Source of the DNA: Perna viridis
Lineage: Eukaryota
DNA length: 64,000 bases
Direction: 5' to 3'
Assembly: GCA_037379345.1 (NCBI GenBank)
Contig: CM074512.1
Location: forward strand, 61,897,597-61,961,596
Positions within the stretch are counted from its first letter, which is position 1. Each line of letters starts with the position of its first letter. Of this stretch, positions 5,862-37,559 are shown one piece after another. Position numbers and translations under genes: made by a program. The notes under the pieces are model-generated. The model had not been told where the DNA came from and made no database searches. It was given only the letters and a program-made list of their open reading frames with translations.

Positions 5862-8800
5862 TCACAGTCCTGCAAAAGCCCTGAATAATAACATTCCTTG
5901 AGAATGAACTTCTATATTAACCGTTTGATTGGCTGAAATAAATATTGTAGTGCCTGCCCTGACATTTAGTGGTGAGGACAAAGTAGAATTAGTAGCTGTT
6001 CCTTCACCACTTTGGACTATCACTATACTAGCACTGTCCATTGATTTCAAGGTGACCTTTTCACATCCACTAGATACCTGTTAAATAAAGAAAAATATAG
6101 ACATCACAACTTACATCATAAGTTAATACATAAATTTATAAAATGATTGTTTTTGGCTCCTGTTGACTCTAATTTTCTAGCCACAACCATAAGCCTTCCT
6201 TTCCTGGCATGGAACCTTGTGGTATTATTTCATGCAGATCCCATAGGTGTTAAATGGGAGATCTACTTCTCAAAAAAAAATTTCAAAGCAGATTTCCTGA
6301 GGCTTTGTTTTCATGACATATTTTGTTAGCAACAGTACTTATTTGAACTTAAAATTCAATTTTACTGAAACAATTTCTTATAACTGCCCATCCCCTTAAA
6401 GATGACATGCAATGTTTCACTTTATTACAAAAATAGTGATGGTCTTTCTCACAGCTAGGTTTGAGATTAGTTTTGACAATAATTGAAATAATTCATAATT
6501 GACCTGTCTTCAGTAATCTTTTTTAGATTTACAAGGTAAAATGGGTTTTATGCTTTTCATTAAAGTGAAAACAAAATTTCTAATTTATCAAGTGTGCTTG
6601 TAGTAAATATGACGAAAATAATGTACTTAGTTTATTGAAGTCTTACAAAGAAATAAATATTAAGCCTTGTGAGCAAGAAAAAGTATGAGAAACTACTGCA
6701 AGCAACTTAACCTAGTGTGTTTTATTTTTGTTATTGAATTGTCTTCACATATTGTGAAATATCTGCAGATACAATATGAATGAGTTACCAAATACTTTAA
6801 ATTCAGATGAATAATTTTTTTTTTGATATTGCCAAAAAAGCCCTGAAATTACCTTTGGTTTATAATGACTATATCACAATAATAAATCCACAAAACTTTC
6901 CTAAATTTACAACATACTATCAAAATTAATTATTACAGAATACTATCAATATTAATTAAATAAACCTTACTTCTAAAACATCAACTGCAAAATCATTGAT
7001 GGGAGGAGTGAAAAATATTTCTGTGACCCCGTGCTGGGATGTTGAATCCTCCTTTGAGGGACGTAACTTTGTTTTGATGATTTGGCGGCCAGTATAATCT
7101 AGCATCTCACACAAAGTATGGACATCACGGAACTTTGGTGTTAAACCAGCTCTTACAACATTATCAGAACAGGCCATACATTCCATGCAATCTGTAACAT
7201 ATTGATGAAGTTTTCTACTTCAGCACAAATACTACTTCATTAATAAAATGATATTATTAATTATACTGGAGTTTATCCAACCCTTAACTTTGTTTACGTG
7301 GGAGGATTCTAAAAATCTTTGAAAGAAACTTTAAGGTTTCAAACACTTCTCATCTTCTCCTTGAAATTTGACTCCAGATGTGAAAAACCTTCAACTTTAC
7401 TCACTGTTAACAGGTTAATGTGACTTCTGATCTGAATTCTTTCTAATTCTACTCACAATCAATAAACTAATATGAATTCTGATCTGAAATCAATTCAACT
7501 TAGCTTACAATTAACAAATTTATAATTTAAACTTAAATAACAATTAACAAATTTATATGGATGCTGATCTGAAATCAATGCAACTTAACCCGCTGTAAAC
7601 AGGTTAATGTGACTTTAGATCAGAAATAATTTCAACTTAACTCACAATTAACAAATATATGTGAATGCTGATATGAATTCAACGTAACTTAACTTGCTGT
7701 TAACAGATTAATGTGACTTCTGATCAGAAATCAATTCAACTTGACTTACAGTTAACAAATTAATATGACTTCTGGGTTTCACAAATCACTCATAAGACTT
7801 TCGTACATGTAATTCCTTAACAAACCAATGGGACTTATGTGCACTAAAGTTTTACATAAGCTTTGTGAAATGATGCCCTGATCTGAAATCAGTTCAAATT
7901 TAATAACTTGAAGTTAACATATAACATCATTCTACCTCCTTTTAGAAAACTTACCTCCAGAGAGGTAAGCATGAGGATAATCAGCCTCTAGGAACATGGC
8001 CTCTCCTGGCTTCAGAGTAATAATATTAAGAAAGTAGATGGCAAATATCCCCACATCACCAGGGAATTCTAAGTTCAGTTTGTTCAACATTTCTGGTAAC
8101 AATAAGCTAGTGTCCTTCCCTTCACTTCCTGAAATAAAGCCATGATGTACATTAGATAAGGCTAAAATAAATTGTGTGTTTCAGTTTCAAGACCCTATCT
8201 CTGATTCTGATGCTGACCCTAAACAATTAATTGCGGATTTAAAAAAAAAAGATTTTTTTGTCATTCAGGTTATGATTTCTATTTTTCTTCGAAACATTTG
8301 AAAAATTAAATGATTTGTAACACTGTTTTACCTACTTACACTACAAATTTTTTTTAGATGAAATAGGAAACACATAATTAATTCATTTTGGCCTTATAAA
8401 ACCGTAAGTCAATGAATCAATTCATGTTTCAATGACTGTACTTTCTCTATAGAATAACAATTCTTTCTCACCCTTCACTATATATGTTCTCATCCTGATC
8501 ACATGTGTAAACTGTCTCTCAATACTACTCATATATTGGTTTACTTTAGCATATTAATCAATGACACCAAACGAACCAAAATTAAAAATTAAACTACAAC
8601 CATATACAGCAGGCCATTCACATAAAGCATGAGAAATTCTACAGATCAGATGTTTTTTCCTGAATTCTATTTGTTATTTGGTCAGTAGTCAATGGAAATC
8701 TCTATGCTCATGACATATTCATTTACAGACTGTTGCACATGAACATTTAAAATTAAATTTGTGACCATATTGTGTAAAAAAGTTTTTCCTCTTCTCCCCA

Positions 8801-11800
8801 TTTCGGTAAGTAACTTTCTATTTAAGCTTGGCAAAATGAAATTTCACTAGCAAGCTCAATTTCGATAACATGAAGTACAATTTGTTTCAAGTTGTCAGAA
8901 TATTTTAGGGTAAATAAAACTTTTATTCAGGGTCATTCAAATCCATGTACTTGTTATGAAGTTATTATTTGCCACCTTTGCAGATACCGGTACTCAATAT
9001 TAACCACTAGCCAAATGCAACTTTAATCTGCCTGTGGTGAGTTGACCAATGCAGGCTTCACACATTGTAACATGTATTTAAATACAGGGAAACTTCTGAT
9101 AACACAAGACAGATATACTACTGGTACTATAGTTTGAAGGAGAACATCAACTTACTGTGAGAAAGACACACCATAGTGTTGTAGTAAATGGACCCAGCTT
9201 TTTTTCAAATTCATTATTAAAATCACCATATTAATGAAGCAAATGGAATAACTTTGTAAGCTCTCCCTAAACAACATTTAAAAATCCCCATATTGTTGAA
9301 GCAGGCAGAATAACTTCATAAGCTCTCCCTAGATCACTTTAATAATAAACTCACCATATTGTGTACATGGAATAACTTTGTAAGTACTTATTTAAATCAA
9401 TTATTAAGTAAAACCAACCATATTGTTGAAGCAGATGGAAGAACTAAGTAAAGTCTCCCTGTACAACATTATAAACTAGAAATACTGTAAGCAAGATTGC
9501 AAAGAAGATGCCCTGTCTTTAAATTAAGTTACATATATAACCTGAAAGTTCAATTATCTCCCTTCAAGGTCCTCTGACAGTAACTTTATACCTTCATGCA
9601 CATCCGGACAGATGACCAACCGTTTTCAAAAATAGCATCAATATCCTTTGATCGAATTAGGAGAAGTCTACGCGAAACCTTTTTTTTACTGGTCATTCGG
9701 ACCTGAAAAGCTTACTTTTTTACTGGACTGTATGAAGTTTTTCTGGTCCAAAAAAACTTTTATTCATTTAAGTGATAAGATATTGGTTATTTCATGGTTA
9801 TTAAATATTCTCCTTTAACAGTGTTTAAGGTTTTGTTTAAGCTTTTGTGGTGATTAGTAAAAAATTGAAAAGATATATTCCAATATGTGTGTTTTATTTT
9901 TAAGCCTTTGACATGTACATTTTTTGTACTAGTAGTGTCTGTGATGTCCGATCATGAGATGAAGTTCCACAGAAAGTTTTAAGCTGAACTGTTCTAGTCT
10001 ATATGTAATGATTCATGGGGATGAGAGAAGGAACGTCCGAACACATTTTTCCTCATACTGTTTCTGCTTGTCAGTCAATTTTCTTTTAATCTTAACTGCT
10101 TTGCTGGGTACTGCACCCTCCGTATACCTTAAAAAGGACATTTTTCAACAGTTTTGTACACGACCAGCCATTTGTATTTTTCAGGGGAAACAACTCGATG
10201 ACGAATGTACAATAAAACTCGAAAAGGATGTCAGACTTTTGGTCCGGATATCGGAGCGATCTTTATCAAACCAGCAGCAATTTTATCGGATTTGACCGAA
10301 GGTCCGACGAGTTTCGTATAGACTGTTTCAGAGGAGTTGTGCTGACTAGGTTTTAAAATAAAAAAACCCTTAAGTTGGATTATCTCCCTTTGGAGTCTAC
10401 CCACAGTAACTACATTCCTCTATGCACATCAAAGTATGATGCCCAACCTTCCTATAAAATTTCATCAAAATCCTTTAAGCAGCTTAGGATGAGTCACTCT
10501 GACAAGGTTTAAACATGCAAAATTTTTTAAAACCCATAAGTTTGATTATCTCCCTTTGGAGTAGTTAAAAAGAAGCAATTCCTTCATGAACACCTACATT
10601 TGATGCCCAACCTTTCTATAAATTTCATCAAAATCATCTGTGATGTCACTGACAAACTGAATAATGTCAGTTTATCCTTTGAATGGTTTGGGAGGAGTTA
10701 CACCAACAAGCATTTAACTTGTAAATCCCTTTAAAACCCTTACCTTCAATTACCTTATTTTCTGGACTATAAGTCGATGTGTTTGTTTGTTTGTTTGTTG
10801 GGGTTTAATGTCTGAGCAGCAATATTTCAGCTATATTCAGACGATGTGGAGTATAAGTCAAAAATTGCCTAATTTTGACAAAAACTCGACAAAAAAAACA
10901 TAGATAAGTCGAAGATCAGACGTGTGTATTTATATCGTACGTGTCAGCGGAGATCTGAGTTGAGCGGTTTGTTTTCAGCAGCATATTATACCAGCAATGT
11001 TACTAAATATAAGATTCCAGAATTAAATAAATATCTGTGTTTTTGTTAAAGTGTACTTTGTCCACGAGTTCAATTATTTTTATTGAATGGCATGTCAATG
11101 GCTCTGAAGCCATAGATCATCAGGAGTACAAAATCGTAAACATGTCTAACATGGGCAACCATGTGTGAAATAAGCGGGAAATTCATTTGATGAATAGGTC
11201 ATAATTACGAGCGGTAATTAGTAAACAATATTACCTGGTATTTAAAAATACAATAAAAAATAACTGTGACCACAAATTTGGATGCAGTTGGCCATTCAGA
11301 TAAAACCTTAATTGATTTATAATTTAAGCCACGTGCGAATGTGTTACGACATACTGTAAATAGGTATAAATTTGTATATTAAAGGACCGATAACTCCAAA
11401 ACACTGGATAATGTTTTCCAATTTAACAAAAGAGTTTTGTAAACGTATCTTCTAGAGTTTACTTATATTTTAACGGTATCAAAGTCTCAGAGTTTTTATT
11501 AACATCATCGTATTCATTCATAAAGGATAGCAGCAATAATCAATACTATTCGAAATCAATCGCCGGTTTGTCTGTTCGTTGATTGCAGTTTACCAAAAAT
11601 TTCGAATTAAAGCAATCAGAAGTGAATTGAACAAATCTAATGAAAAGCCTTGTTGATGAACATTTTTCTTGAAAAATCCTTAGATATGTTGAAATGGACG
11701 GTAAGTTGAGGCCGACACTCAGCTGAAAAAAAATATCGACTTATAGTCTGGAAAATACGGTATCTTCCTTTGAAGTTATCCAACAGTAACTATACTTCTT

Positions 11801-14800
11801 CATGCATATCTACATATGATGCCAAAACTTGCTTTAAAATAACATCAAAATCCTTAAGTTGGATTATCTCCCTTTAGAGTTGTCTGACAGTAACTATATT
11901 CCTTAATTCACATCTATATACGATGCCCAACCTATAAAATTTCATCAAAATCCTGTGAGCGTTTAAGGAGGATTTACACTAACAAGAAATGTGGACATAT
12001 CGTCAGACAGACAGACAGACAGGGAGATTCCTATATACCTCCCCCACAAACTTAGTTTGCGTGCGGTATAATAAACTCACCATATTGTTGAAGCAGATGG
12101 AACAACTTTGTAAGCTCTCTCTGGACCACATTCTTATCCTGCTCCATCAGACCTGTGAAACATGCCTTCATAGCCTCTCGATGTAATGGCATATCATTGC
12201 TTTTACTGGCAGTGATTAACTTTACAGCATTTTTGGATCCTACAGCATTCCTCAAGGGTTCTAGTTCTGATATAAAAAGTGCTTTTTATATATATAACTA
12301 CTTATCATATAGGCAATATTGAATATCAATACACTGAATTGACATTTACTTCTGAGGTTTATTAGAACAGCTATATCAGTTAACACTCCCACATTATGGG
12401 AGAAACTCTCATTGAAAAATCAATGAAAATTAAGAATCTCCTAAGTGTATATGAAAGATTTGGGGGAGGTTTTTGGTTAAAATTTTTATACTTCTCTTTG
12501 AAAAATACTTAACAATTGAATTTTTACATGAAAAATTTTGCTTTTACTCATAAATCAGCCTCATGGGACAGTGGCAAAGGGGGGAGGTTAACAGGTATGG
12601 AACAACAAGAAAATATCAGACTGTGCCAAGCATTCTCAACCAAGTTTGTATTCTTTCAAAAACTTTTTTTTTGTCAGTGCACTGTTATTGCCTTTGTACT
12701 GCAACAAGAATTTATCAGAAAAATAATGTTTTAAGCAAGAAACAAAGTTTCTCATTTGAAGCAGTAACATTCTGATAACTACAACACAATATGACATTTG
12801 TGATGTTACAACAGTAAGTCATATTCAGTCAGTGGATTAAGGATTAACAACTTGTTTCAAACATCTTAGTACATTAACAGAAATCTGGATACCAAAAAAT
12901 ACAACTCTTCATGTAAGATCCACATATTTTAGACATAAATTAGTGGATGAATAAATACATGTGAATAAAAAAATAGCCCATTTTTTAAGCAGGTGCCTAA
13001 TTAATTAAAATGAAATAATTGTATACCAAGATTAGAATATGAAGCAAAACTCAGAAACTTAACCAAAAATGAACATCTAATTAAAAAGATTTTCTTGATA
13101 TATTTCTCATTAAAAGGATATTCAGTAAATTGCCTTTAATCAACAAATACTTCATGGTTTGACCAAATTATTCACTTCATAGACAACAATATAACAGCTA
13201 ACTCCCTACTTGTAATAAACTCAGCCACCTCCCTAATTGGTCGAAATCCACACATAGCTTTGAATGGTGTCAGTGCTATGGCCATTTCAGGTTTATGGTT
13301 TGGATCTTTGTAGATATCAGGTTTCTCCCTGTGAAGTTTTTCTGCATGAACCTGAGGTATATACAGAATTAGGAAATTAAGTACTGTAAATTGGGAAATT
13401 TTCATGCCATTTTTATTCATGGTTTCTGCTATAAATCTGCTTTTGCACAGTTTTAAATTTGTGATCGCTCATCAAATTGTACTGTAATATTCTTTGAAGA
13501 AAATATTTGCAACAGTTTAATTTTTGCATTATGGATCTTGGCACGAAAAATAGAACTGCCGCAAAAATAAAACTGCCATGAAAATTTCACTGTTTTACAG
13601 TAACAAGTCTAACACATGTAAAGTTTTTTTCTAGTTCATATGCATATCTTTTAGTTGATTTTCCCTTGTTAAAGAGCAAGTCAATATATCTGGAAACCTT
13701 ACATGAAATTTCCCTACTGTCAAATGTAGACATTTTTCCCTTTACAATACAAACTTTACACTTTTTACATAAAATTTTTTCTCATCAAAGGGACTGAAAA
13801 ATTCCTATTTTCGGTCATGTGAGATTTCTTTACAGCACACATTTGAGACTTCACAATGAATTGTTCTTTGAAGTCTTACAGAAATAAATGATTTACAGCA
13901 AGAAGTGAGTTCTGAATTGGTGTACTTTTATGGAACCAAGACATTTACATTACCTTATTAGGATGTGCCTGTATAGATAAGGATTTTTGGACAGATAAAA
14001 CCTTGAAGAGAAAAGGCAGACGACCTTCAAAGTACTCTTTGACCTTAGACCCAAGGCAATCAGGATTTTGATTGATCCAGTCTTTTAGTTTTCCTTTACT
14101 CTCTCCATCCATACATATCTCAGATGGTCCATTAGGATGAGTTCCCATCCAAAGCTGAAAAAAAGTCTTAATTTATCAGATTGTCTGGAAAAGAACATCA
14201 TATACACTGTAGACTTATAAAAAACTAAAAGAAAAATAAGTCTACATGTAATTTGTAAATGCAAATGTACTATGAGCTAAAATCATCTTAAACTGAAACA
14301 GCACAGTGGAAAATTAGTTACTTGCATCTACTTTTTTATTAATCTACTATGGCATGGCAAATTAATCCAAACTTATTAAAATTATGACAGTATCTACGCA
14401 CACCCAGATTCCCCAATGTAAAGTTAATTAAAGTCTGTATATATAGGTGTGAGAGCACTTAAAAGATTGAGGGACACTAAATCAGCTTAGAATCATGGTT
14501 AAGTGGTCAAATTCATACTTGATTCTCCCACATTCTTTGTAATTATGTTCTGACATGCTAATCATGTACAGATGGACAGACATTTATATACCATTATCTC
14601 TCAATCTTGTAAACTTAAACATTGCATGGCTTTTGCTTTCCCACTTTCTAGAATGAACATCTTTGCACATTATATCAAATTTTAAACTTTTCATCATTAG
14701 TTCTTATTTTTACGCATTGATTTATCATTTTTTTAAAATAAAAACAAAGCAAAATTTATTTTTCAATTGTGTCTTTTATAAAAGTTGCCAAAATAAAATT

Positions 14801-17800
14801 CCTAACAATATGCACATCTCAAAATCTCTACATAATGATCTCACAATTGTATTAAGTTTCATGAAGATCTAGCAAGTAATAATGAAGGAGTTACAGACAA
14901 ACTATGACATATACTCCACCTAACTTCATTTTCAGTGGGTATACATGTAATTCCCCAGGTAGGATAAATTACAGCTAAAGTTAACAGTATTAATTCATGT
15001 ATTTAACTATTCTTATTCAATACCTCAGCATAAGGTTGATTTTCCTCAATTTTAAAACTTTTATTGGCTGATGCAGCCAATTGGGCCACAGCACTTGAAG
15101 ATCCATTCTTCCCCCAGGCATAGTTCTGTACAGCACATTTCAGCTCAAATACTGAAAATAAGAATAGAAATCACATGAACATTCATGGTTGTTACCCAAC
15201 TCAAAAATTCACAACTTAATGTGGTATAATGAGTTGGGACATGAATGTCAATATATAAGTACATGCAGAATACAGATTCTTGTGGTAAGGGAAGTGAAAT
15301 GGTAGCTCCCTCTAACAGGTACAAGAGTACTACTAAATTTAAATACAACCTGAATAATATCAGTTGCTATATTTCTCTGATATCTGAATGCTCCATTAGT
15401 AAGGACACTGAATTATTCCAGTTCATTCAAATACCACAATCTATTAGCTAAGAACATGTATGCTTGGGAAATACTAAATAAGTTTTATTGGTAGAGCATT
15501 GGTTTACAAGAGTAATCAAGGGAACCAAGGTTATAGCGGTAATCAAAAGAATGTAATCCAGGGACAAAGACCAGACATGGAAAACAGACATACACAACAA
15601 AGAACATAAAGTAACTAAAATCATACATACAAAGTAACAAAAGTAAATGAGCAACTCGGACTCCACTAAAAACTGGGAGCATGGACCAGGTGCACCGGTA
15701 GGGTAAGCGTCCTCTGCTTTTCTAGAAACACCCACTGAGTTGCTCATAAGAAGTCAAGTCCGGGGTAGACAAACGAGGAAAGGAAAACTATGACCCGTTG
15801 AATAAATCAGTTTTCATGGTGTTAATGGATACACCATAACGATCCACGAGTTCATGATGACGACCATAAAACTTCTGTAGTGACTTCAATCTTGTAGCAA
15901 CATAACCCTGTTCCAGAAGCCTATTTGTTAGAGTTCTAGCGTGATACAAAAAGTCTGTGTAGTTTCGGCAAGCTCTGGCATAATGTATGAGTTGTGATAT
16001 GAACACTCCATACGCAGGAGCCGAAGGGATGTTGCCACAGATGAAAGGAAAGTTGACAATTCTGAATGAAAAGTCATCATGTTTGTTGTGAAGTTTGGTC
16101 AATAGTTTTCCTTTACCATCGATTTCTAAGTGTAGGTCAAGATATGAGGCTGACTTCACAGTGTCTGTAGTATCCTTTATCTCAAGTTCTTTTGGGTAGA
16201 TGCGATGTATCAAATCCCCGAAATTAGGATTGTTTAAAGATAACCCATCATCTATACAGCGGAAACTGAGATTGAAGGATCTAGCTAAACAATATTCTTT
16301 CTTTCTGATCAGATCAGCTATAAAGTCAGCCTCATAAGAGTGAAGGTATAGAGCAGCTAGTAAAGGGGCACAATTTGTTTCCATTGGAATGCCGACCATT
16401 TGTTGAAAAACACGTCCACCACACTGGACAAATATGTTGTCGATTAAAAATTCCAGCATTTTGTAAACATCTTCCTCTGTATATTTGGAAGATGATTTGG
16501 AATTATTTCTTACAAAGTATGAGGAATCTCTACCAAGAACTATATATTTGTATCTAGGTGTACCATCCTTTTTGGAAAAACAACGATGTATAATGTTTTT
16601 AAGTCGGGATTTTAACTGAGTGTGGGGAATAGAAGTATACAGTGTTGAAAAATCATAGGTTTTAATGCTATTATATTCAGATAATAGACAAAGCTTGAGA
16701 TCAGGACTAGATTTTCATTTCCAGCTGGTACTGTTCAAATCTATTTTGTCAAGTTGAATTATACCTATCTTTATATATATAGTGCATTAGTATCCCAAAT
16801 TTGAATTCATACTGTTACTAACTTTACATTTTCATAAAAATACAAAATTGTTGAAACTGATATGAGAGCAATTTTGGCTGAAGCTGCACATGCCTCTTAC
16901 TAGCGAAGAGAATACAGTGAATATAAATAAAAATAATATATGGGTAGTCTAAGACTCAAAAGGTTTGCAATGTTCCAGTCTGGGGCATTTTTTCCCAACA
17001 GTTGCAGGGTAGTTTTTTTTTAAAGATCAATGTCATTTCTGATGAAGGTATCAAATGTGAAGTACCACAAGGGTCTGTATTGGGACCTTTATTCTTCTTC
17101 ATATACATTTATGATTTAGTTGATGATACAAAAAGTCTGTATAGACTTTTTTGCTGATGATACTTCTCTTTTTTGTTCTTCATATGATAAAAAAAAAAAC
17201 AAGCATCTTAATGCTTTAGACTGGACTAAAACTTGGTTAATTTATATTAATCCTACAAAATCAAAAAGTATAGTATTAACTTCAAGAACTAATGTTTACA
17301 AACCTGAATTGAAATTTAATAATGTAAATATTAACTATGTGAAAATCACCAACACCAATGATCATGGGTTTACCTGCCTAGTAATTGTAAATGAAATTTT
17401 CATATTGTATCAATTATATGAAGTGTAACCAATAAACTGTCATTGCTTCGTAGTTAAAATTTATATTGAATGGAAAAAATCTTGAAAAGATAAGTTTTTT
17501 CTTTTATAAGAAAAGTTTTAGAATACAGGTGCAGTTTTCATTCTAGACCGGGCCCTTGTGCCATTGGCACAAATATTTTGTGCATGGCGCACAAAAAGAG
17601 CATGTGGGTCCAGTGCGCTCACAGTATTGTGTCGGTAGATCTCCGAATTTCTGGATTTTTTTTGGGTTCTGTGTTAGGACACGTATCGCAAGTCAAAAAC
17701 GATTTAATGAAACTGCAGGTGGTGTGCAGGGAACAAGATCATTTCCCCTGAACCTAATGACGGGACCCAGAAAATTTCAGATCAGCCGACTGACTGAAAA

Positions 17801-20800
17801 CAAATGGACATGGCTGGCAAACCTACAGTCAAAAATTTCAAATGACGATGTTCATTGTCCGTGGGCCTGGTTGGATACGATCCCAAAAGAACAGAAAAAT
17901 TCCAAGTGGCGCTGTAACATCATATTGAAATTACAATTTGAATCAACACAATGCCATAATAAAACAACAACATATACTATATAGTACTTCTTTTTATCTA
18001 TTCAGAGTTTATGTACATGTATCTCTGTTACCTCTCACCTAAAATGAAACTATAAAGTGCATACAAACATAACCTGAAGTAAACTTATTTGTTGGTTGAA
18101 TCTTTCCTGCTACGGAAAAATGAACCCTTATAATACTGCCATTTTGGCACCCTTTATTCTGAAAATGACCCACTGTTTTGCTGTCTAGGGGCACACTGGC
18201 CCCCTTTTACAATTTTCTGGAATACTGCAGGTGTGAACTTACTAGCTTTATTCCACAAGATAAATGAATGCTCTTTGCGTGCATATAAATAAATGATGGA
18301 GGAATGCTAAAAGCTTGATTTAAACACATGATAAATGAATGATGATAAAAAATTATAAGAGCAATTAATGAAGAAAGAAAAGATGGAAAATAATTATTAA
18401 ACAAAATAGTAATAGTAAAAATATAAAAATAATAGCTGAAAAAAAAAAGCAAATGATGAATTTACAAAAATAAACAAATGTATGTGCATTTGCATGAATG
18501 CTTGTTTCATGCATTTCAACAAACGCTCCAATCATGTCACATGTATTGAAACAAATGCTCCTATTGCGTGTTTAAACGAATGCCTCTAATATGCATTTGA
18601 ATGCAAAAAAGCAAAATGATGTGTAATCCAAGATTAAAGAAGCAAAACATGCAATAAAAAAAGCATGAATGCTTCTATGGGAAACATAAATGTATCAAGG
18701 AGTTCATGTAACTCTAAAGCAACTGAAATGATTGAGGGCAGTTGAACAAAAAAAGTTTTTTTTATTTTTACATGATCATGTCAACTCCTGACTAAGTACT
18801 AAATTTCTAAATTTTCCAGAATAAAAAATCAATAAAAATATGAGATGAAAAAAAAATATGTATAATCTGGTACCTCAAATAAATGAAATTGAGTTTTCTT
18901 TTTTTTTTTTTAACAGAAGCCACCAAAACCATATGTGTATATCCAATAAAATACATTTTTACATTTTGTGGAGTATAATAGCTACTTATGTTATTTAAAT
19001 AAATATTAAATAAGTTTTGTCATGGAAAAAGTTTTTTATGCATATTACAACACTTTCTACATGTAGCTACCAAATGAAAGTCTGTAATAATCAATATGGC
19101 ATCAGAAAGACATGTAACTAATTTCAAAGTACTGACACCATATTGATTATTACAGATTTTCCAAGGGTATCTAGAAAGTGTTGGAATAGGAAAAAATTAT
19201 TTCAAGTATGTTTTAACAGGGACTTTATATTAAAGGGATTGGTCACTCCTAACAAAGTCTATACAATGTATAAAAATAACTGTGCCTCCCCAGTCATTAT
19301 ATTGAGTAAACTTAAAGCCTAAATGATTCACATTTGACTTATGTATATGGGGGAAAGAGAAATTATTCAAGATTTCAGTTACATAAGCTATCAAATTAAC
19401 AATGTGATAATGACAAAGTCATGATGAAAATATTGAGGAAGGGTGTGTTCTCAAAACACTAAAATAAAATAAATACGTCATAACTTAACTATAAAAATCC
19501 ATTATTACTTATTATTTATCAGTAATTGTCCCAAGGAAAATTGATGAATTTGGTCAACTTTTAACCGTTAATTAAATATTTCAAACTCATTATTATGTAA
19601 TAAATATCATATCATTTTAGAGAAATTTCTTCAATCTTTTAATTGGTAGTAAATTTGTATGTTTAAATAAACAGGAAGACACAATGATTAACAGCTTACT
19701 GAGTATTCTTTATGAAAATGAAAACTTCGAAATTTCTCTCTGAAGACAAAGGTACATTCATTTATTCATTATTTTATTGTTATTCAGAGCACTTTCATTA
19801 AGAACAGCCATTGCCATTCAGCAGATTTACTCTTTAATTTGTTGTTAATTGCATTTTAATAAATGCAATAGTTTTCACATTCAATGAAATATCGTCCTTT
19901 AAAAAGTGATTTTTTGCTTATTTGTCTAAAAAGACCTAATTTTGAAGCAAAAAATTTTAAAAAATTTACATTCCTTTTATTTAAAGCTGCATTAGCTGTC
20001 ATTTTTGTATTTTTTTCTGTTGAAATATGTCTTAACTTAATTATTACCACTAAATTGTACTTTTCTTGTACAATTTCATTTGATATCCACAAATAAAATG
20101 CATTAAATACATAAAATTGGTGTCTACATATTTAATGTCTTAATCAACCTAGATAAGTTTGTATGCATGTGACTTCTGGTGACCTAAATTCGCGCATGTG
20201 CTGTAAGGGTCACTTCTTTAATAGCAAATTTTATTGCAAAGTGAAAGTGGTTCTTCAATGGCAAGGAAGACCGACGGACTCAAGCCGTAAAAGAAAAAAG
20301 TTCAAATATAACGCAAGGATTCTTTTAAAATTTACGTATTGTGATATAATGCGGCTCAAATATGATCATTATTTATTTGACAACTAATAAAAAAATAGAT
20401 GAAATGAAAACAAGATAAATGCTTACCTGTGTATCCGTTACTGTTATTTTTTACAAAGGTTAAAGTATTTTTAACCCTGGTGAATGTACTGTCAGCAATC
20501 TTCGGAAGTAATGGCGAAAAATAATTAGACTACAATATTCTGTAGGTATTATCAACATTAACTGCTTCAATTGCATTACTACAAACTTATTTCATTGAAT
20601 CAGGAAAATTCAATAGAATCAAAACTGAACAAATTTGGCAGCTAATGCAGCTTTAAGATAAATAAAAAAAATACATGTTGCCATTCTCAGATCTTTTATA
20701 TACAACTTGGTACATCATTTTTCAAAAGCCATACAGTGGTTTTTACAAACACCCTTAGCAAAGTTATCCTATTTTCAAAAGAGAAATTTGAGAAAATTGG

Positions 20801-21813
20801 TTAATAAACAGCAAAATAACAAAAGAAGAGTTTGATATAGATTATTACAAGTGACTTCTCTAATATACACTCCCTGGTTTATATAACATAGTTAGCAGCT
20901 TCACCACCCAAAAATGTATTTTATTGAGATTTCAGGATATAAACACCTGGTTTTCGGTTATTTGAACAACCCAATATAATCTGCATTAAAATATTTATAG
21001 CGCCCCGTGCAGGTCTGGGTGTTAAAAGAATAGGCCTGCAGCAGTGCCTAGCTTGTCGTAAAAGGCAACTAAATAGTGCTCAGAACCCTAGCCGGGGGCT
21101 AGGGCACTTTGCCCACAGAGCAACTGAGATATGTGTCCCAGGTGGTGGAATGGGGTACCCCTGGCGTTACATGCTAGGGTTGTCAGGCTATAATACGGAA
21201 AACCTGACCGCAAACCATAGTGGTGCACCATGTTGGGAAAGATGCCACGTTCCTCCCAAGTTAAAGAACCCTACTCGGCTACTGTGGTATTCTACCGGAG
21301 TAGGAACCATAGGGCTCCGCCACAGGAGGCTAAATTGCCGGACCCCACCCACCTCTCCCTATTTTCAGTGGCAATCAAAATTTGTCGACCCCATAGTCCT
21401 TGTGTCCCATCCCTTTTTCATTTCATCATCATTTCATGTTCATCGTCTGAATATAGATGAAATATTGCTGCTCGGACGTTAAACCCCAACAAAAATATTT
21501 ATAGCAGCCAGGTGATGGCTGCATAACTATAATGAAAATTTAAAATCGTCCCCAGGCAAATCCTTCTGGGTCTTAGCACCTAGACTCCACTGAGGGTCGA
21601 TGAGACTCCCAGACCTGGCCTTAATTTGAAGGGCCTATAGGCTTTCATGTCGATAGGCACCAAGATGAAATCCATGGATAGTTCCGCATAATAGCATAAA
21701 CGACTTTGCATCATGTCTAACTCAAAGGAATTATGTTTTACTCATCACCGTATCCACTACACGTCCATTCATTACATATAACAGTAGTTTTAACCTTGTT
21801 GGACAGCTTCCAT
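5862..21813 (-). CDS. MPI: Mannose-6-phosphate isomerase (type I phosphomannose isomerase), canonical copy, 8 coding exons, 428 aa
   Basis: Exons (minus strand, all GT-AG, phases consistent): 21813-21795 (MEAVQQ, Kozak-like cgccacgATGG), 15151-15024 ([15 protein letters not shown]...PYAE), 14154-13954 (LWMGTHP...[22 protein letters not shown]), 13351-13210 ([17 protein letters not shown]), 12266-12081, 8128-7955 (FPGDVG...[18 protein letters not shown]), 7191-6971 ([20 protein letters not shown]), 6077-5862 (TGA). Total 1287 nt. All PMI type I signature motifs are present. The 19-nt exon 1 is the least certain part. Confidence 0.95.
7385..7920. repeat. Degenerate minisatellite, ~45-50 bp unit (aacttaactcactgttaacaggttaatgtgacttctgatctgaaatcaattc), in MPI intron 6
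   Basis: Several recognisable copies of the ttcaactta..ttaaca..tgatctgaaat pattern. Confidence 0.75.
9219..9473 (-). repeat. Four degenerate tandem copies (~64 bp) of the 3' end and splice donor of MPI exon 5
   Basis: Each unit matches ataaactcaccatattgttgaagcagatggaacaactttgtaagctctc at 12071-12120. Confidence 0.85.
9665..10324. mobile_element. Non-autonomous TIR element nested in the HINE
   Basis: Terminal inverted repeat AGTCTACGCGAAAC / GTTTCGTATAGACT. Confidence 0.6.
10753..11760. mobile_element. Tc1/mariner (pogo/Tc2-like) non-autonomous element with TA TSD, nested in the HINE
   Basis: TIR CCTTATTTTCTGGACTATAAGTCGA / TCGACTTATAGTCTGGAAAATACGG flanked by TA on both sides. Removing it restores the host repeat ttcaat-ta-tcttccttt. 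Confidence 0.8.
10779..10846 (-). mobile_element. 3' tail fragment of family A SINE (antisense) inside the Tc1/mariner element
   Basis: Reverse complement of catcgtctgaatatagctgaaatattgctgctc.gac.ttaaaccccaac followed by (AAAC)n. Confidence 0.7.
13384..13600. mobile_element. Tc1/mariner-type MITE with TA TSD
   Basis: TA|CTGTAAATTGGGAAATTTTCATG ... CATGAAAATTTCACTGTTTTACAG|TA. Confidence 0.7.
15508..16700 (-). mobile_element. Penelope-like retroelement (Naiad-type), 5'-truncated, RT C-terminal half plus 3' UTR; in MPI intron 1
   Basis: ORF 15788-16459 has decayed PLE RT motifs: GIPM(E)TNCAPLLA, R(C)[43 protein letters not shown]. Upstream [14 protein letters not shown] at ~16620-16665. No C-terminal GIY-YIG domain. 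Confidence 0.85.
17040..17530 (+). mobile_element. CR1/L2-group LINE RT fragment
   Basis: [37 protein letters not shown]. Confidence 0.75.
19985..20652. mobile_element. Kolobok-like non-autonomous DNA transposon with TTAA TSD
   Basis: TTAA|AGCTGCATTAGCTG ... CAGCTAATGCAGCT|TTAA. An RR-start with a TTAA target fits Kolobok. Confidence 0.75.
21002..21491 (+). mobile_element. SINE-like non-autonomous retroposon (family A), full length
   Basis: 14-bp TSD AAAATATTTATAGC (20988-21001 / 21492-21505). Tail gacgttaaaccccaac. Homologous to 23486-23980 and 53246-53741. Confidence 0.85.
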
Positions 21814-25819: not shown

Positions 25820-26520
25820 TTGGTCCAAGTTTCTGAAGGCCATTGGCCAGATGAGCTATTGCCATCCCTTGGCGTCCGTTGTCATCACCGTACATTAATG
25901 TCGTTACATTTAAAAAAAAAACTCTTCTCCTCTGAAACTACCAGACCAATCAGAACCAAACATGGTTTGAATGTACCTTTTGGTGTTCTGCATAGAACTG
26001 ATGTATGGTTTTTCATTCCGTCAAAAAAAATGGCCGCCGTAACTAAAAATAAAACATGGGTCAGACAGGTGTTTTTCGCAAATATATTTCCAAAACCGTT
26101 AGGTTTCGTCGAATTCTATCAAGTGCCGAAATGATCCTCATTATAAGGCCTACAAAAGTCTGCATTAGGTCAAGGTTGTTAGATGACCCCTTGTTAGATT
26201 TCTTGTCCTTGAAAGATGAAAAATGGTGTTTGTTTTTACAGTTTTCAGCCAATATCTTGAAAGATATGATAGATACAAAAAACATTCAGTTGCTGAAATG
26301 ATCCTTATGATAAGGCCTACAAAAGTGTGCAGAGATCAAAGTTGTCGGACGACTCCTTGTTAAGAGTTATTGCCGTTGAAAGGCGAAAAATATGTTATTA
26401 TCAGTTTTCAGCCACGATATCTTGAAAACTATAATAGATAAAAAGAAACTTTCAATTGATATTGATGAAATGATCCTTATGATAAGTCCTAAATGATTGT
26501 ACAAAAGCCTTCTTTGAGTC
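25820..26520 (+). mobile_element. HINE-like element with ~170-bp satellite-like units
   Basis: Head ggccagatgagctattgccatcccttggcgtccgt. Unit gaaatgatcct.at.ataag.ccta recurs at ~26128, ~26296 and ~26467. Confidence 0.65.
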
Positions 26521-26731
26521 AAAATTATCTTTGTAAACATTGATTCTCGCCTGTTTTCAAACCATTCCCAAGAAAAAATGATAGTGACAACAGATGACTT
26601 CGACCAAGAAAATGATGAAAAACTTTGATAGTAACAACAGGGCTTAAGACTTACTAACACATAAATTCCTAACAAATAATTGACCACAGCTTTATTAAGT
26701 TCATCTTTTATGCTGATTGAGATGCCAGATT

Positions 26732-29700
26732 CTAGTAGGTACAAAAAGCTCTGTATATCACCATGTTGATGGAATGCAGTTTAATAGTGACTATTTCGTC
26801 AGTTACTATAAATAGAACAGTCCCTGGTTTCAACTTTATAGATATATTGTTGGTACTGCTTACAGCTTCCCCTAATCCAGTTAATATTAAGCATATGCTC
26901 GAACTGTTTAGTGGTCGCATAGAGATATCTGTTCCCCCGGTTGCCTAAAAGTAGATTGAAAATTAGTACATCATTAGCCTCGGTTCCCCGAGCAGACATA
27001 TGTAAAAATTTCCTCATAATTTACCGACATATTACCCGGTTGATAGGTTATATGGAACGAAAATGATGGTCTTCATGAGACAACGGTACAACAGACGGAG
27101 CATGTTTATATACTTAAGTTTTTTTGTTTGTTTTTTCTTTCTTTGGATTTGTGTATGCTTTTTGTTGTTGTTGTTTCTCTCCAGTTCCTAGCTTCGTCTG
27201 AATCTCTTGAATTTCGAGTTTTTATATATCAATGTTCCCCTAAATTCACATAATTGATGTCACTTACATGTTGCAGTTTAACTATCAGTCTTTCAAGTTC
27301 AAATCGGTCCATAGTTTTTTTTTTTTTACTTTAATGCCATGTGGTATTTTGGGTGTTTGAAACTGTGTTTCGCTTTTAAAATGCCATGTCGAGGTATTTT
27401 GGGAGTGTTTGATTCTGTATTATCTCTTTCAAACTGTTTTGAGGAATACTAATTGTGATTTAGAGAAGAATTATTGACAGGACTTAAGTGTTAAAAGTGA
27501 CAGTACCACTATTGACATGATGGAATACAATATTACTACTAAAACAGTAAACCAATATGATCAGTTTGAGTTTTAAAAATCTCAAAAAAAAATAGTTTTC
27601 AAAATATTTTAACTTTTCTAAAGCATACCCTTTTCTAAAGTACAACCGAACTCTGGGAAATATTTTCAGAAAACAAATCCTATAAGGCTTAATGTAATTT
27701 CCACTTAATATATTTCTACTACCTATTTTATGGCTTAGTATTGTAAGAGCTATGAATAACTAAATCATGTGCAATCAACTCATTTGAACATCTTAAGATG
27801 GCACTAAAGATATTCGAGTTACTTGCATTATGTAGCCTGAGCACATGGCTTTTTGTTTACAAATACTAGTACATCAAATATTCAAATATACTTGTTCCAA
27901 CATTCAAACAAACAACATTATATTTAAATAACAGGGCGAGTTCAGGTGAGGGCGTAAAGGGCGCACACCCCCTTTTTCAAAGAAAAAAAACAAAAACAAA
28001 ATACTACCGTAATCTGCTAAATATTGTACATGTAATAAATATCCTAAAGTTGGTATTAGGGCGTGACTTCGGACATATCTCAGGATAGCCTCGAGAACCG
28101 CACCCTGGATCGCGCCCCTGAATATTCAAAATTAAAATTGCATTAAGTCTAATGGGAATTTCTTAGGTCTGACAAAATTCTGAAAATGTTTCTCTGAGTT
28201 TGTATGCACTACTGAAAACCAAAAGTAGTTTTTTTCAAAGACTAATAATACTCAAACAGACTTAACAAAATACCTTTAGGAGGGACAAAGTGAAATCCTG
28301 AACTCTTGCATCGTATAAAAATTCCGATACTTCAAACTTTTGTTGGAATAATGTTGGTTGTAGTTTTATGTGGTCTGTTTCGAGTTCAAGAAAATTTGCA
28401 GTCTGGCAAAAGGCCTCCACATCGCACAGTTTATTGGACAAAGCGGCTCTTATTACATTGTGAGAACAAGCCATGCATTCTATACAATCTGAAATCGGAA
28501 ATAAATTATTAAAGCCTTATTCATTGTGTGATTGTTTATAACGAAAATGCGCCTTTTCATGATAGTTGACATATACGAGGAAGGATAATCCCCCACATAT
28601 TATTGTGAATTCTATGTCCATCAAGGTCTACTTATCGCATGTTTTCGTATGTTGCATTTTGTAAAAAAAAGGCTTTTAGGCAGTCAAATCATGTTAAATA
28701 TACATTTTTTTTTATTCTATATATTTTCATCTTACATATTTAACACTAAATCATGCTTCGTGAAGTGTGTTGAAAAAATATTAACGGCAGTGGCCGATCC
28801 AGAAAGGGGGAGGGGCAACATGCCAAAATGGGAGGGGTACTCCAAAGCTCTTCAGTTTTTTTAATGTAATCAAACAACCAACTTATTTTGATAGATGGGC
28901 ACGGTACAAAGAGAATGTAGATCTCGATTATTTATGTAGAAAAAATCAACATATTAAGTGTAAATTTTTGTTGATGAGAGAACCCCGCTCTGCAAAATAC
29001 TAGACCCTTCAGGAGGGCTACTAAATACTTACCACCGGACAAGTATGCATGAGGTACGTTACTGTCGATAAAAATAGCATCTCCGGGATCTAGATCGATA
29101 ACATTCATGAAATATACAACAAAAACACCAACGTCTCCAGGATATTCTATAGAAAGCTTTCTTACAATTTCTGGTAGAAACATAGTCGTGTCTTTACCAA
29201 GCGATTCTGAAAAAAAAAATCATTATTCAGATAACTCAAAACGACTTGTTCCCTAGTCACCGTGTCTGTGCAACAGACTATCAGAGTGAGTGTCATTTGG
29301 CCACTTAATTTCTTGATCGCTGAACTAGTTTGTCATGAAAAAAATTATGCCAATTACGTCTGTATTATATACTGAATTATTTCAACATCTTTGTTCTGTC
29401 CTAAATCAAATCTACGACTTGAGGTGGACGAACCGGCTATTTTTGCAATAAGTTTGGGCGTTTTCGATTGGTAGTCACTTTTTAAAAGAATTTTAACAAC
29501 ATATGAACATGTGAACAGCTGTGTATAGCAACGGAAGGGGAACAGGAGTCCCAAACATGCTATAGATTGCACACATGAGTACGCCATAACACAACTTTGA
29601 ATCAACGATCGAATCGTACATACTTTTAGTGGTTGGGCTAATATAAAAACTGTATAAATATGGATCATACCTAATGTACATATTTCTTGTAACAGTGCAG

Positions 29701-32700
29701 CAATTTCTAGTGCAATCACATCCTTACTCTGTTTCAGCAGCGCCCTGAAGCAATCCCTCATTGCTTTTACACAAATATTCAATTCTGAAGAATCACTTGC
29801 ATTTAAGAGGTTTGAGTAATCAGGTCCAATTGCTCTTCTCAGTGGTCCTATATCTAAATAAATAAACCAGACGTCATAATGCAAGTCTTCGTAATTTTAA
29901 ATGTGAAGAATAGGAAGACACATTACACAAACTATGTAAAGGCAAGATACCCGAAGACATCACGCGTATTATTGCGTACGAATGCGTTTCATTTTCAAGC
30001 AATCGATACACCACTAATAGACGGTATCTATGAATTATTTTTACTGAACTGAGTTAGTAGTCCAAGAAGTTAAAGCCTTTAATACAATTCACAAGGAAAG
30101 ATTTTTAGAGATTCTTTGGCACTATGGAATGCCGTCAATGACGATAGACTCGATAGGAGGTTTTTTAAAGTTGGAATTTATACAAATGTTTACGCACGGT
30201 AGGTAAAATATCAGCTTTAATTACATCGAGAGTCAGGCAATGTTGTGTTCTTTAGCCTTTTGATTTATTACAGCGGTGGCTTTGGGTAAAAAGCAAACAA
30301 CTGTCAGCGAAAATAACATCAATATTACATGTATACTCCAAGTCACCTCAGATTGTTTGCGTTGTTTTGAAAGGAACCGTCGAGTAATTACAAAAATAAA
30401 CGCAAAAAAAACGCAAACAATCTGAGGTTACTTGGATTATAGATGGACAGTTTCAGTCTTAGTGGATGACCTAATGCAATCTCCTGTGCAGAGGAATTTT
30501 AAAACTTTATGTACTTCTGTGCCACACTCAGTGCTGTCGCCCCTTAATGCATATTAGTACAGTACACCAGAAACATTTGTAATGAGTAGTGCAATGGTTA
30601 TTTTGTTCACATCCTGTATAGTAGAGCCTATAGATAAGCTAGCCACAGTAAATCTGGAATTTGTTATACATATTGTATGTCTACGGAGAAGATCGACCTC
30701 AGCAGCTTAACTCTCCCATCTTGAGACAAACATGTAGAATACACCGTGGTAACAAGAAAATGCTTGGTGAAATCAATTCATAGTTTGCCTCAGTGTAATT
30801 TACATTAATTCAAACAGTAATTTTCAATGTTTGATTAAATTTGAAAGTATTAATTCTAAGATCATCTCCAAAAGAATAACTCTTAATATCTCTTAATGCA
30901 GGAACATGAACTTTAAATTGTTACTATTTCATGTACTGTCTACTGATGTAGACGACCAAAACAGGGGCATGAACCAATGGTCGACACAAAAGATACAATT
31001 AAAGACTATTTAAACCAACACATTTTACTCAAAAAAATTGCCCATGTTTTTTCGTTCCTTTAGTCAATGGAGTGACATAATATGATTTAGCTCCTAAGTT
31101 GGCGATATATCAGTACACAGTCATACTTTTGATGAAATTTGCCACTTCCTTAACTGATCTGAATCCACAAAGTGCTTTGAAAGTAGTTAAAGCAACGGCC
31201 ATCTCTGGTTTGTGGTTAGAATCCGTGTATACACTTGGTTCCGCTTTATGTAGTCTCTCAGCTGTAATCTGTTAATAGAGTTAACTGTGGGGTAGTCGAA
31301 AATTAAGCTTAAAACATACACTTCCGCATGGAAAGTTCTGCTGTTCGTCATCAAGCCCTTATAGCAATATATGTTTTGAAAATATTGGTGTTTACTATTT
31401 TTGGAGTTATAAGATCAACTTCGTAACTTTCAGGATTCGAACAGCCGAATTGTTTTCTCTACTGTAACGAATCACACTTTATGGCTAAACTCTTCAAAGA
31501 TCCTTTAAATCATGATCTGTTGCGTGAAATTAATGACACTTTTTATAATCTTGATGATATTTTGGACGTAAAGAACTTCGAAAACTGTGTTCAAGATATC
31601 TACCCAAAAGGACTTAAGTTGACCAAGTCTAACAAATAGCACTAGTAAACATTTTCTTGATTTAGATAATACACCAGAAAACGACACTCCTTCATTAAAA
31701 CATATGAAAAAAAGAGATCAGTTTGATTTTCCATTCTTAGATGGTGATATTCCTGAAACACCCTCCCGCGGTATTTACATTTCACAACTGACCCGTTTGC
31801 CCGTGTTTTTTATATAAATATTTTAATGAACGCAACATGTTCCTGAAAGCTTTTGCACAATCAATATCACAGACCTTGTTTTGATGGTATTGTCATACTT
31901 TAATATATGATCTAAGTAATTGCAAGCAATTATGTGGGTTTCTTCTTTGTCTATATGATTCCATGGACAGAATCGAATGCATTATCAAGTGAATATTGTG
32001 GTGTGTTTGTTGTTTCAGTTCATTTTTGATCTTGCAAGTGGGAATGGCTGAGAAGAAGTGGGAATGGACTTGAAGAGGATATGAAATGAATTTAACAAAG
32101 TAGGGGAATGCTTTAAAGCTTACTGAGGCTAATATTACCTTGTCAGGGTGAACTTGTACAGCAAGTGATTTTTCAATTGACAGAACTTTCATCAAGAAAG
32201 GCAACTGTCCATCGGAACAACTGTTGCTACCAGATCCAATGCATGACGGGTTCCTCTTTAACCAATCTGGTAGAGTTTCTATCCGTCCATTGATATTTAA
32301 AGTTGACGGAGAAGTAGGATGAGTGCCCATCCATAACTGAAAACAGAAAAAAAATATTTATTGTTAAAATCTTACGATTTCGTGTTTTATAGTGAATATG
32401 ATACGCGGATGCCAAATATAAACAACTTCAATTTGAGTGACGTATAAAAGCCGAATATTGGACAAAAATCCATCTTTGAACACGATTTAAAGATAAAATA
32501 GTACGTTTAACAGTATCATTCATCTGATTTTCTGCACATGGTAATGATAACAAATATATCACGGACGTCAGAGAAAAAGTCAAAAGAGTAATCAAGGGAA
32601 CCAAGATTCTAGCGGCAATCAAAAGAATGTAATCCAGGGACAAAGACCAGACATGGAAAACAGACAAACACAACAAATAATGTAAAGTAACTAAAATAAT

Positions 32701-33414
32701 ACATACAAAGTAACAAAAGTAAACGGGCAATTCGGACTCCACTAAAAACTGGGAGCATGGACAAGCTAGGTACACCGGTAGGGTAAGTGTCCTCTGCTTT
32801 TCCAAAAACACCCGCCGAGTTGCTCGTCAAGTCCGGGGTAGACGAAAGCGGAAAGGAAAGCTATGACACGTTGAATAAATCAGTTTTCATGTCGCAGATG
32901 GATACACCGTAACGATCCACGCCAAGTTCATGATGACGACCATAGAACTTCTGTAGTGATGACTTCAATCTTGTAGCAACATATCTCTGTTCCAGAAGCC
33001 TAACTGTAGTCTAGCGCTATACAAAAAGTCTGCATAGTTACGGCGAGCTCCGGCATAACGTATGCGTTTTGATATGAAAACTCCGTATGCAGGTGCTGAA
33101 GGTATGTTGCCACAGATGAAAGGAAAGTTGAAAATTCTGAATGAAAAGTCATCACGTTTAGTCAATAGTTTTCCTTTACCACAATGTCTAAACAAATGAC
33201 GCTAAATTGAAATTCAATAATTCCATTTCATTTTGTTATGAATCAAATCATATTTTTCTTAAGATGTATTTCATGTTTGGTTTACCTCTGCGTAGTGTTG
33301 GTTGCTATCGATTTGAAAGTTTGGATCAGCAGACGATAACAGTTGAGCAACCATACTATTTACCCCTCGTTTTCCCCACTGATTGTTCTGTGCGCTGCAG
33401 TTTATTTCAAACAT
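26732..33414 (-). CDS. Mannose-6-phosphate isomerase-like tandem paralog (diverged), 7 visible coding exons, ~417 aa
   Basis: Exons (minus strand): 33414 (acceptor at 33425)-33286 (MFEINCSAQNNQWGK...HYAE), 32336-32139 (LWMGTHP...LPFLMKVLSIEKSLAVQVHPDK), 31268-31127 (YTDSNHKPEMAVALTTF), 29853-29671, 29206-29033 (YPGDVG...PGDAIFIDSNVPHAYLSG), 28488-28274 (DCIECMACSHNVIRAALSNK), 26944-26732 (TAG). Intron positions and phases match the canonical copy, and there is no internal stop or frameshift. A short upstream first exon may exist but was not located. Confidence 0.9.
27932..28120. mobile_element. Small GC-ended MITE
   Basis: CAGGGCGAGTTCAGG ... CCTGGATCGCGCCCCTG imperfect TIR. Confidence 0.5.
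30335..30439. mobile_element. ~100-bp hairpin MITE
   Basis: TCCAAGTCACCTCAGATTGTTTGCGTT / AACGCAAACAATCTGAGGTTACTTGGA, with TA on both flanks. Confidence 0.7.
31500..31870 (+). mobile_element. Old Penelope-like RT fragment (different subfamily)
   Basis: Remnants VQDIYPK.L.L, FLDLD, YEKRDQFDFP, DGDIP..PSRGIYISQL. Confidence 0.6.
32584..33182 (-). mobile_element. Naiad-type Penelope element, 3' fragment, in an intron of the MPI paralog
   Basis: [27 protein letters not shown] plus the same 3' UTR as 15508-15790. Confidence 0.85.
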
Positions 33415-33846
33415 TCGGTCTTCATCTGTAAGATGCACAAGATAAAGTATATTCACTCTGTTGTGCGAACACGATATGATACAACAATTATCATTCGATA
33501 CCCAAATCCGTAGAAACTTCAAAGATTACGTTACACTACAAACTGTAAATTATGTTCCGAAAATAGTCCATGAGTATATAAGGTTTCATACAAATAGAAA
33601 CTAGATCCGGTTAAACAGTAGTATTGATTGTTTTCTCTCTATAAAACAGTTTTCAATAATTTAATCATTCACTTTTCTATACAAATGCATAAGTCTGAAT
33701 GTAATGCTTAGTATGGCACGCCGTTCACGTCACAAGAATGGGATTAAATTACACACTCAAAATGTTTGTTCTTTCATTTTCTTTGTGCAGTCAGCAATTT
33801 ATGGTGTAGTGTTATTTTATATCACATTTTATACTTTTGACGAGTA

Positions 33847-36750: not shown

Positions 36751-37559
36751 TCATTCATCCTCGTAGGATATACCTAGGATTGTTATTTGGTTGTTTAAAG
36801 AACAGTTCATGAAGGTTAGAGGATCTATTATATATAAAAGAATGAACATGGAAAAAAAGTACTTGTGAAAGTTCTTACCTATGCTTAATTTGTTGAATTT
36901 CCCCGATTGCTGGTAATCCGACTTTCTATCCATTGCTATAATACTGCATCTGAATAGCTGTGGCATTAAATCTTATGTCAAACTTTTATAAGTCATCCGA
37001 TAAGTCATATATAATTAAAATGTTTGGAATAAACGCCCATGAACACACCTCCCGGATAGGCTAAAGTACATCAGTTTATTAACTTCTATAAAGGTGAATG
37101 TACGCCATAATCCGTATATTTCTTAGGTATGGATATATTGCTCGCGGGATAAATCTGATTAAAGAATTTGCGGCACAATAACCACATTTACCAGTATTTT
37201 TATTTTATTGATTTTCTCAACTGAAGATTAATCAAAACTATTAACAATCATCACCATCCTTGTTGTTGATTACTTTTGATTATTCTTGATCCTGTGCATG
37301 TTTTCGAATGCTGTGGTGTACGTACATAGTCGCAGGAGCTGAGTATCTCTGGTTGTTTGGCTAATACCTATGCTATTTTAATGGTAGAAATATGTGACGT
37401 ATGGGATCTAACAAATATCGTAAAAAGTCCAATTTGCTTTACAAATATAGCATGCGCACATGCAAGCCGAAATGATGTTACACTGACAAATGGAGCAAAC
37501 TTCAATAGGACACTTAAAATTTCAACAGTGGTCTCAGTGATGTGCGCAACATAATCAAC

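Follow-up and report, generated by a model that had tools for sequence, protein, structure and literature searches.

The window, a 64,000-nt stretch of the Perna viridis genome, carries on its minus strand two genes resembling mannose-6-phosphate isomerase (MPI), both located by motif scans (Table 1). One is the canonical MPI, and the other, lying upstream of it, is an intact eight-exon type I MPI gene, referred to here as the paralog. Seven of its exons, B to H, run from 33425 to 26732 and are GT-AG joined with an unbroken frame that ends in a TAG at 26732. Because RNA contigs from three of four runs extend beyond exon B into 36879-37026, the start was moved to an additional exon, A; the contig sequence past exon B has a single match in the window, at 36881-36910. 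The ORF encodes 439 aa (ATG at 36933) or 450 aa (in-frame ATG at 36966), all 14 splice sites are canonical, and neither stop nor frameshift occurs across 439 codons. The preliminary description of this locus, all of whose quoted motifs can be located on the minus strand of the window, was right about the intact frame, but the start it gave at 33414 is an internal Met, exon A having been overlooked. In the longest 5' end (36934-37026, minus strand), three short upstream ATGs lie out of frame and one further ATG in frame; the 3' UTR was followed to 26462, where the contigs break at a repeat.

Other features lie around or within the two genes. The last exon of a TMEM126-family gene (42074-42730, minus strand; PF07114, E 1e-11), with RNA contigs at its 3' end, lies upstream of the paralog, and an exon with an L27_1 domain (PF09058), probably of a Dlg-like gene, is found at 55138-55479 on the plus strand. 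Long ORFs at 15788-16714 (minus), within the first intron of the canonical MPI, and at 50029-51873 (plus) resemble retroelement remnants by eye, and the two scanned gave no Pfam match. A shared repeat at about 32580-33190, 15510-16130 and 38520-38750 has very high depth in RNA contigs.

Table 1. Exons and selected residues of the two MPI genes, in window coordinates; substitutions such as Y16N carry Candida numbering, other residues of the paralog its own
Feature	Position	Strand	Content
Paralog exon A	36879..37026	-	5' leader and first 18-29 codons; loose ends of contigs X1, X5, X20
Paralog exon B	33286..33425	-	QNNQWGK; N33 = Y16N at 33384-33382
Paralog exon C	32139..32336	-	PFLMKV...LAVQVHP; M114 (F99M), K115; zinc ligands Q126, H128
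S109A in paralog exon C	32162-32160	-	A124
Paralog exon D	31127..31268	-	YTDSNHKPE; K151, zinc ligand E153; contig span by length
Paralog exon E	29671..29853	-	helical insertion domain
Paralog exon F	29033..29206	-	FIDSNVPHAY; zinc ligand H292
Paralog exon G	28274..28488	-	ECMACSHNVIRAALSNK; E301, R311, N316, K317
D300H in paralog exon G	28462-28460	-	H307
Paralog exon H	26462..26944	-	C-terminal cupin; stop 26734-26732
Canonical MPI	5862..21813	-	428 aa, 8 exons; first exon 21813-21795 inferred from sequence
Canonical MPI exons 2-5	15151-15024, 14154-13954, 13351-13210, 12266-12081	-	
Canonical MPI exons 6-8	8128-7955, 7191-6971, 6077-5862	-	

Over 416 aligned codons the two copies share 44% identity, and their synonymous sites are saturated (pS 0.77; pN 0.35, dN 0.47). 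Intron phases are alike in both (1,0,0,1,1,1,0), except that the acceptor of the first intron is shifted by four codons (140 vs 128 nt). One repeat is the sole intronic similarity found between them. A first exon common to both genes was considered and rejected, each copy having its own exon A. Queried against the 723 Mb genome, exon C has at least two matches, namely the two genes of the window. The canonical window copy is 79-80% identical to Mytilus canonical MPI, and in a 46-row quick tree its end branch measures 0.12 vs 1.04 for the paralog, which is the fast-evolving one.

The expression of the paralog, for which an RNA-seq check had been proposed, is confirmed by spliced contigs in five of the six studies examined. 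In four of four runs, from four studies, contigs cover the paralog exons with sharp ends and the CT..AC joint; exon B is present in contigs of three of four runs, run X6 having no exon B contig. The lengths of the eight-exon model, 1683 and 1596 nt, are exactly those of contigs X1 and X5. Among 24 runs listed, 16 probable RNA runs contained 12-21% of gene-region words, approximately the exonic fraction, and four same-species runs contained next to none; the RNA nature of the runs is inferred from the spliced contigs, which speak to presence and not to tissue or level. At least two coding differences are listed in the RNA contigs, both of the listed ones non-synonymous. An unspliced contig of about 950 nt inside intron 1 of the paralog (34157-35055), whole or partial in several runs, represents a retained intron, a separate RNA or DNA.

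Related bivalves carry the paralog, as the ortholog search suggested earlier has established for four Mytilus species. The best match of exon C is an MPI-like protein of M. galloprovincialis (64% identical), whose cluster has M. edulis and M. trossulus members, and a relative was found in M. coruscus. A homolog search with exon G alone gave 24 candidates, none of which was scored. In three species, M. galloprovincialis, M. edulis and M. coruscus, paralog and canonical copy have neighbouring accession numbers on the same contigs; in M. trossulus the numbers do not adjoin, although both copies are on a chromosome of equal length. The Mytilus proteins (XP_076097254.1, XP_071164840.1, XP_063425959.1, CAC5413183.1), automatically annotated as mannose-6-phosphate isomerase-like, share the derived pocket residues of the window paralog, whereas they are only 49-51% identical to it and retain YKDP and RAGLT. 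The quick tree unites all six paralog rows in one clade (SH-aLRT 100), with mytilid canonical MPI as its sister (83), and with eight trait columns removed these values are 98 and 88. A separate duplication in each genus was rejected (AU p = 0.0006; AU tests here and below used LG+F+G4 with a fast search). By these phylogenies, the duplication is older than the split between Perna and Mytilus. Among the 120 matches listed of 2361, none was such a paralog from an oyster, scallop or clam. Between the two Mytilus copies, P0001 and P0149, exon D is identical at 39 of 47 positions, compared with about 40-60% elsewhere, a likeness that may reflect gene conversion or strong constraint.

Selection on the paralog is evident from two patterns. 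Paralog and Mytilus ortholog are identical in 93 of 106 family-invariant columns vs 67 of 225 variable ones (p = 4e-24), a contrast between site classes that bears out the purifying selection proposed beforehand; in addition, ten invariant columns are changed in both genera, and in nine of them Perna and Mytilus agree on the new residue (p = 1.3e-4). It is therefore very unlikely that the paralog is a redundant copy decaying slowly under relaxed selection in the window lineage, given 439 codons kept intact while synonymous sites relative to the neighbour became saturated, canonical splicing throughout, the strong site-class constraint and spliced transcripts in five studies. Such decay would nonetheless agree with the long end branch, with additional lineage-specific losses (19 of the 106 invariant columns are changed in the window copy vs 13 in the Mytilus ortholog), with the two listed non-synonymous differences and with the lack of an M. 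californianus paralog among the 120 matches listed.

The paralog is assigned to the type I PMI structural family (EC 5.3.1.8; PF20511/PF20512; Candida 1PMI and 5NW7, Salmonella 3H1Y), with which it shares the three-domain cupin and four zinc ligands. Exons C and F match PF20511 (50.8 bits) and PF20512 (26.4 bits), both above cut-off, and the Mytilus ortholog, taken as a proxy, has a predicted fold (pLDDT 93.3, from 69 aligned rows, most of them canonical MPIs) that matches 1PMI with a TM of 0.86. Type I PMIs are also duplicated in other eukaryotes, such as AtPMI1/2 and OsPMI1-3 of plants; the active ones isomerise M6P (PMC4865823), and they are likened to the mussel genes by duplication, not by pocket residues.

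Residues were compared in an alignment of 141 rows, left after six had been dropped (one mis-spliced model, three short isoforms and two fragments). Six of the rows are paralogs, and the 135 others come mainly from vertebrates, molluscs and agarics; numbering follows Candida PMI through alignments to 1PMI. All six paralogs keep Q14, W18, E48, K100, Q111, H113, H135, K136, E138, H285, Y287, E294, S299, N301, R304 and K310. In the window paralog, alignment recovers the four zinc ligands Q126, H128, E153 and H292, confirming that the metal-ligand motifs had been correctly described as retained, together with E301 and the predicted phosphate-binding cations R311 (= R304) and K317 (= K310). With respect to function, E294 is presumably the catalytic base, a role for it and for K100 being implied in part by the titles of PDB mutant entries; Y16 and K310 presumably lie near the phosphate, and D300, presumably the ring-opening residue in the Salmonella enzyme, near the sugar ring. 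The zinc ligands of type I PMI are Q111, H113, E138 and H285 (PMC4865823, PMC3765361), and the family works by a cis-enediol mechanism with minor, latent activity on free or other sugars (PMC4718643, as summarized in its Table 1). Ser95 of the SxQxH motif, equivalent to S109, is called crucial for phosphate binding in a passage of PMC9602691 citing Roux 2011, and human MPI R295, equivalent to R304, is reported to bind the phosphate (PMC13199471).

Against this conserved background, six changes, Y16N, F99M, S109A, L279I, D300H and L317F, occur in six of six paralogs and in none of the 135 others. Position 16 is Y in all 128 other homologues with a residue there, and S109 and D300 are each present in 135 of 135. 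Y16N, S109A, D300H, F99M and P309N/F set the paralogs apart from type I PMI, from which they do not differ at W18, E48, K100, K136, Y287, E294, R304, K310 or YxDxNHKPE. The window copy alone has a longer N-terminus and, confined to its lineage, G306A and T308S; its loop reads SHNVIRAALSNK in place of the SDNxxRAGxTPK motif. Only part of the rewriting that the preliminary description saw in near-invariant motifs is exceptional, namely Y16N, S109A and D300H and, in the window lineage alone, G306A and T308S; two of its four motif changes are wholly or partly ordinary variation. QVH is the wild type of Salmonella and was also seen in 13 of the 149 representatives from the search described below, NVIR is found in 22 of 135 homologues, and YTDSNHKPE, at paralog residue 145, fits the eukaryotic consensus YXDXNHKPE published in PMC4865823.

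Whether the altered pocket could belong to a protein without activity is addressed by what is kept. A catalytically weak or dead sugar-phosphate binder, acting as a sensor, buffer or regulator, would accord with the loss of both S109 and D300, the latter presumed to open the ring, and with the extra changes of the window copy in the RAGLTPK loop. However, the proposed catalytic residues K100, Q111, K136, E138 and E294 are kept in six of six paralog rows over long branches, and likewise in three variants from outside the mussels. As these residues and both phosphate-binding cations persist, the pseudo-enzyme option is weaker than had been allowed, and we regard it as quite unlikely.

The three outside variants were obtained by searching 1.84 billion representatives with a profile; 150 were listed and 149 scored, the Mytilus paralog being omitted. 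Y16 is changed in three of 144-149 representatives, a frequency to be read as an upper bound because the profile is biased toward paralogs, and S109 is altered in these three and in no others (p = 2e-6); the bias inflates the frequency of variants but does not account for neither change occurring alone. They are Elysia marginata GFR57708.1, Aspergillus nanangensis KAF9884608.1 and the cluster P0251 (Logan/ENA). Like the paralog they read NxWGK and L[AC]xQxHP, alter P309 to N or R, and keep R304, K310 and the proposed catalytic residues, P0251 having RAGLSNK where the window paralog has RAALSNK. In contrast to the paralog they lack D300H, which occurs in none of the 149 representatives, and have D, D and A at position 300; the fungal and P0251 proteins moreover group with other lineages. 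MPI variants with D300N (P0186, P0189, P0200 and P0299, including Blastocystis and Steinernema proteins) were also noticed.

A single clade, and thus one origin, for all five Y16N/S109 variants was rejected (AU p = 5e-43). With the trait columns taken out, the fungal and P0251 proteins group with relatives having Y16 and S109 (97, 100). From this grouping and the rejected single clade, Y16N with S109A or S109C appears to have arisen at least three times. Elysia may or may not be a fourth origin (AU p = 0.34), and in FastTree it joins the mussel paralogs at 96 with the trait columns, a placement that does not resolve without them. The joint change of Y16 and S109 among distant representatives is apparently a new observation. 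Searches of the open literature turned up neither an account of an MPI paralog in mussels nor one of the roles of Y16 and D300.

Among bacteria, the degenerate pattern K[VI]L-x5-LA[VI]QxHP returned 50 loci, with the motif match shown in 31, and no protein with the full mussel signature; four are clear type I PMIs with S109A, and Y16 and D300 are kept in all four. Three Vibrionaceae variants (L003:4097-5392, L011:4632-5948 and L046:4632-5960) are type I PMIs with LAIQVHP, RNDKPE and RIGPTKL. They adjoin genes for a TRAP transporter and a PfkB kinase, and two of them also PGI and sulfatase genes, in the part of the neighbours scanned. These S109A loci possibly belong to an anionic-sugar pathway; with a different signature and from one family, they are a lead only.

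It has to be weighed whether the paralog has remained an isomerase of M6P and F6P, as an isozyme of low affinity or altered regulation that serves particular tissues or stages and in which the swaps tune Km or inhibitor sensitivity. The zinc, catalytic and cationic phosphate residues are all kept, and because R304 and K310 remain, M6P may still be turned over. Older mussel allozyme papers reportedly scored an 'Mpi-2' locus, implying two activity zones; a search of the open literature for Mpi-2 with Mytilus and allozyme found none. Inhibition of MPI by F1P shows sugar-phosphate inhibition to be physiologically real (PMC13199471), and MPI kinetics are under selection in intertidal animals (PMC7071928). 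On the other side, PMC3873017 lists a single Mpi locus in its accessible portion, a weak point, and the invariance of Y16, S109 and D300 in 128-135 homologues, with Y16 and S109 changing jointly, exceeds usual tuning. Such an isozyme is conceivable but somewhat unlikely.

We give an even chance to the reading that the paralog is an active aldose-ketose isomerase whose phosphate site has been remodelled and whose substrate is an anionic sugar different from M6P. A different sugar is likely because the pocket swaps recur jointly in unrelated eukaryotes, and the changed specificity suggested earlier gains support from the recurrence of Y16N with S109A/C in at least three origins. That chance divides about evenly between a different sugar phosphate and an anion that is not a phosphate; an algal sugar without phosphate is less likely, since every variant retains R304 and K310. 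In this scheme, zinc binding and cis-enediol chemistry would proceed through the kept Q/H/E/H, K and E residues, and the distal anion would be held by R311 and K317 without the hydroxyls of Ser and, presumably, Tyr. A hydroxyl-poor anion end would fit either a sugar phosphate of another shape or a C6 group with a single charge, for which uronate, sulfate or sulfonate from diet or glycan turnover are candidates. D300H would change how the ring opens or which ring form is preferred, and the housekeeping step between M6P and F6P would remain with the canonical neighbour. The narrower proposal that Y16N and S109A, with or without P309N, form a repeatedly evolved switch to a non-phosphate anionic sugar, such as mannuronate/fructuronate or a 6-sulfo sugar, is speculative and, in our judgment, unlikely to hold; if true, mussels, a sea slug, a fungus and one further eukaryote would share a so far unrecognised pathway for sugar acids derived from algae or glycans.

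Type I PMI is usually treated as a one-substrate housekeeping enzyme, and an animal paralog that is conserved and expressed, and whose phosphate site was rewritten in a coordinated way seen in at least three independent origins, offers a cheap and sharp test of substrate change in the family. The finding also flags a mis-annotation, since all Y16N/S109 variant proteins are labelled MPI, and bears on any attempt to assign the classic Mpi allozyme marker of mussels to a gene. Moreover, the paralog may expose a missing step in the sugar metabolism of filter-feeding mussels.
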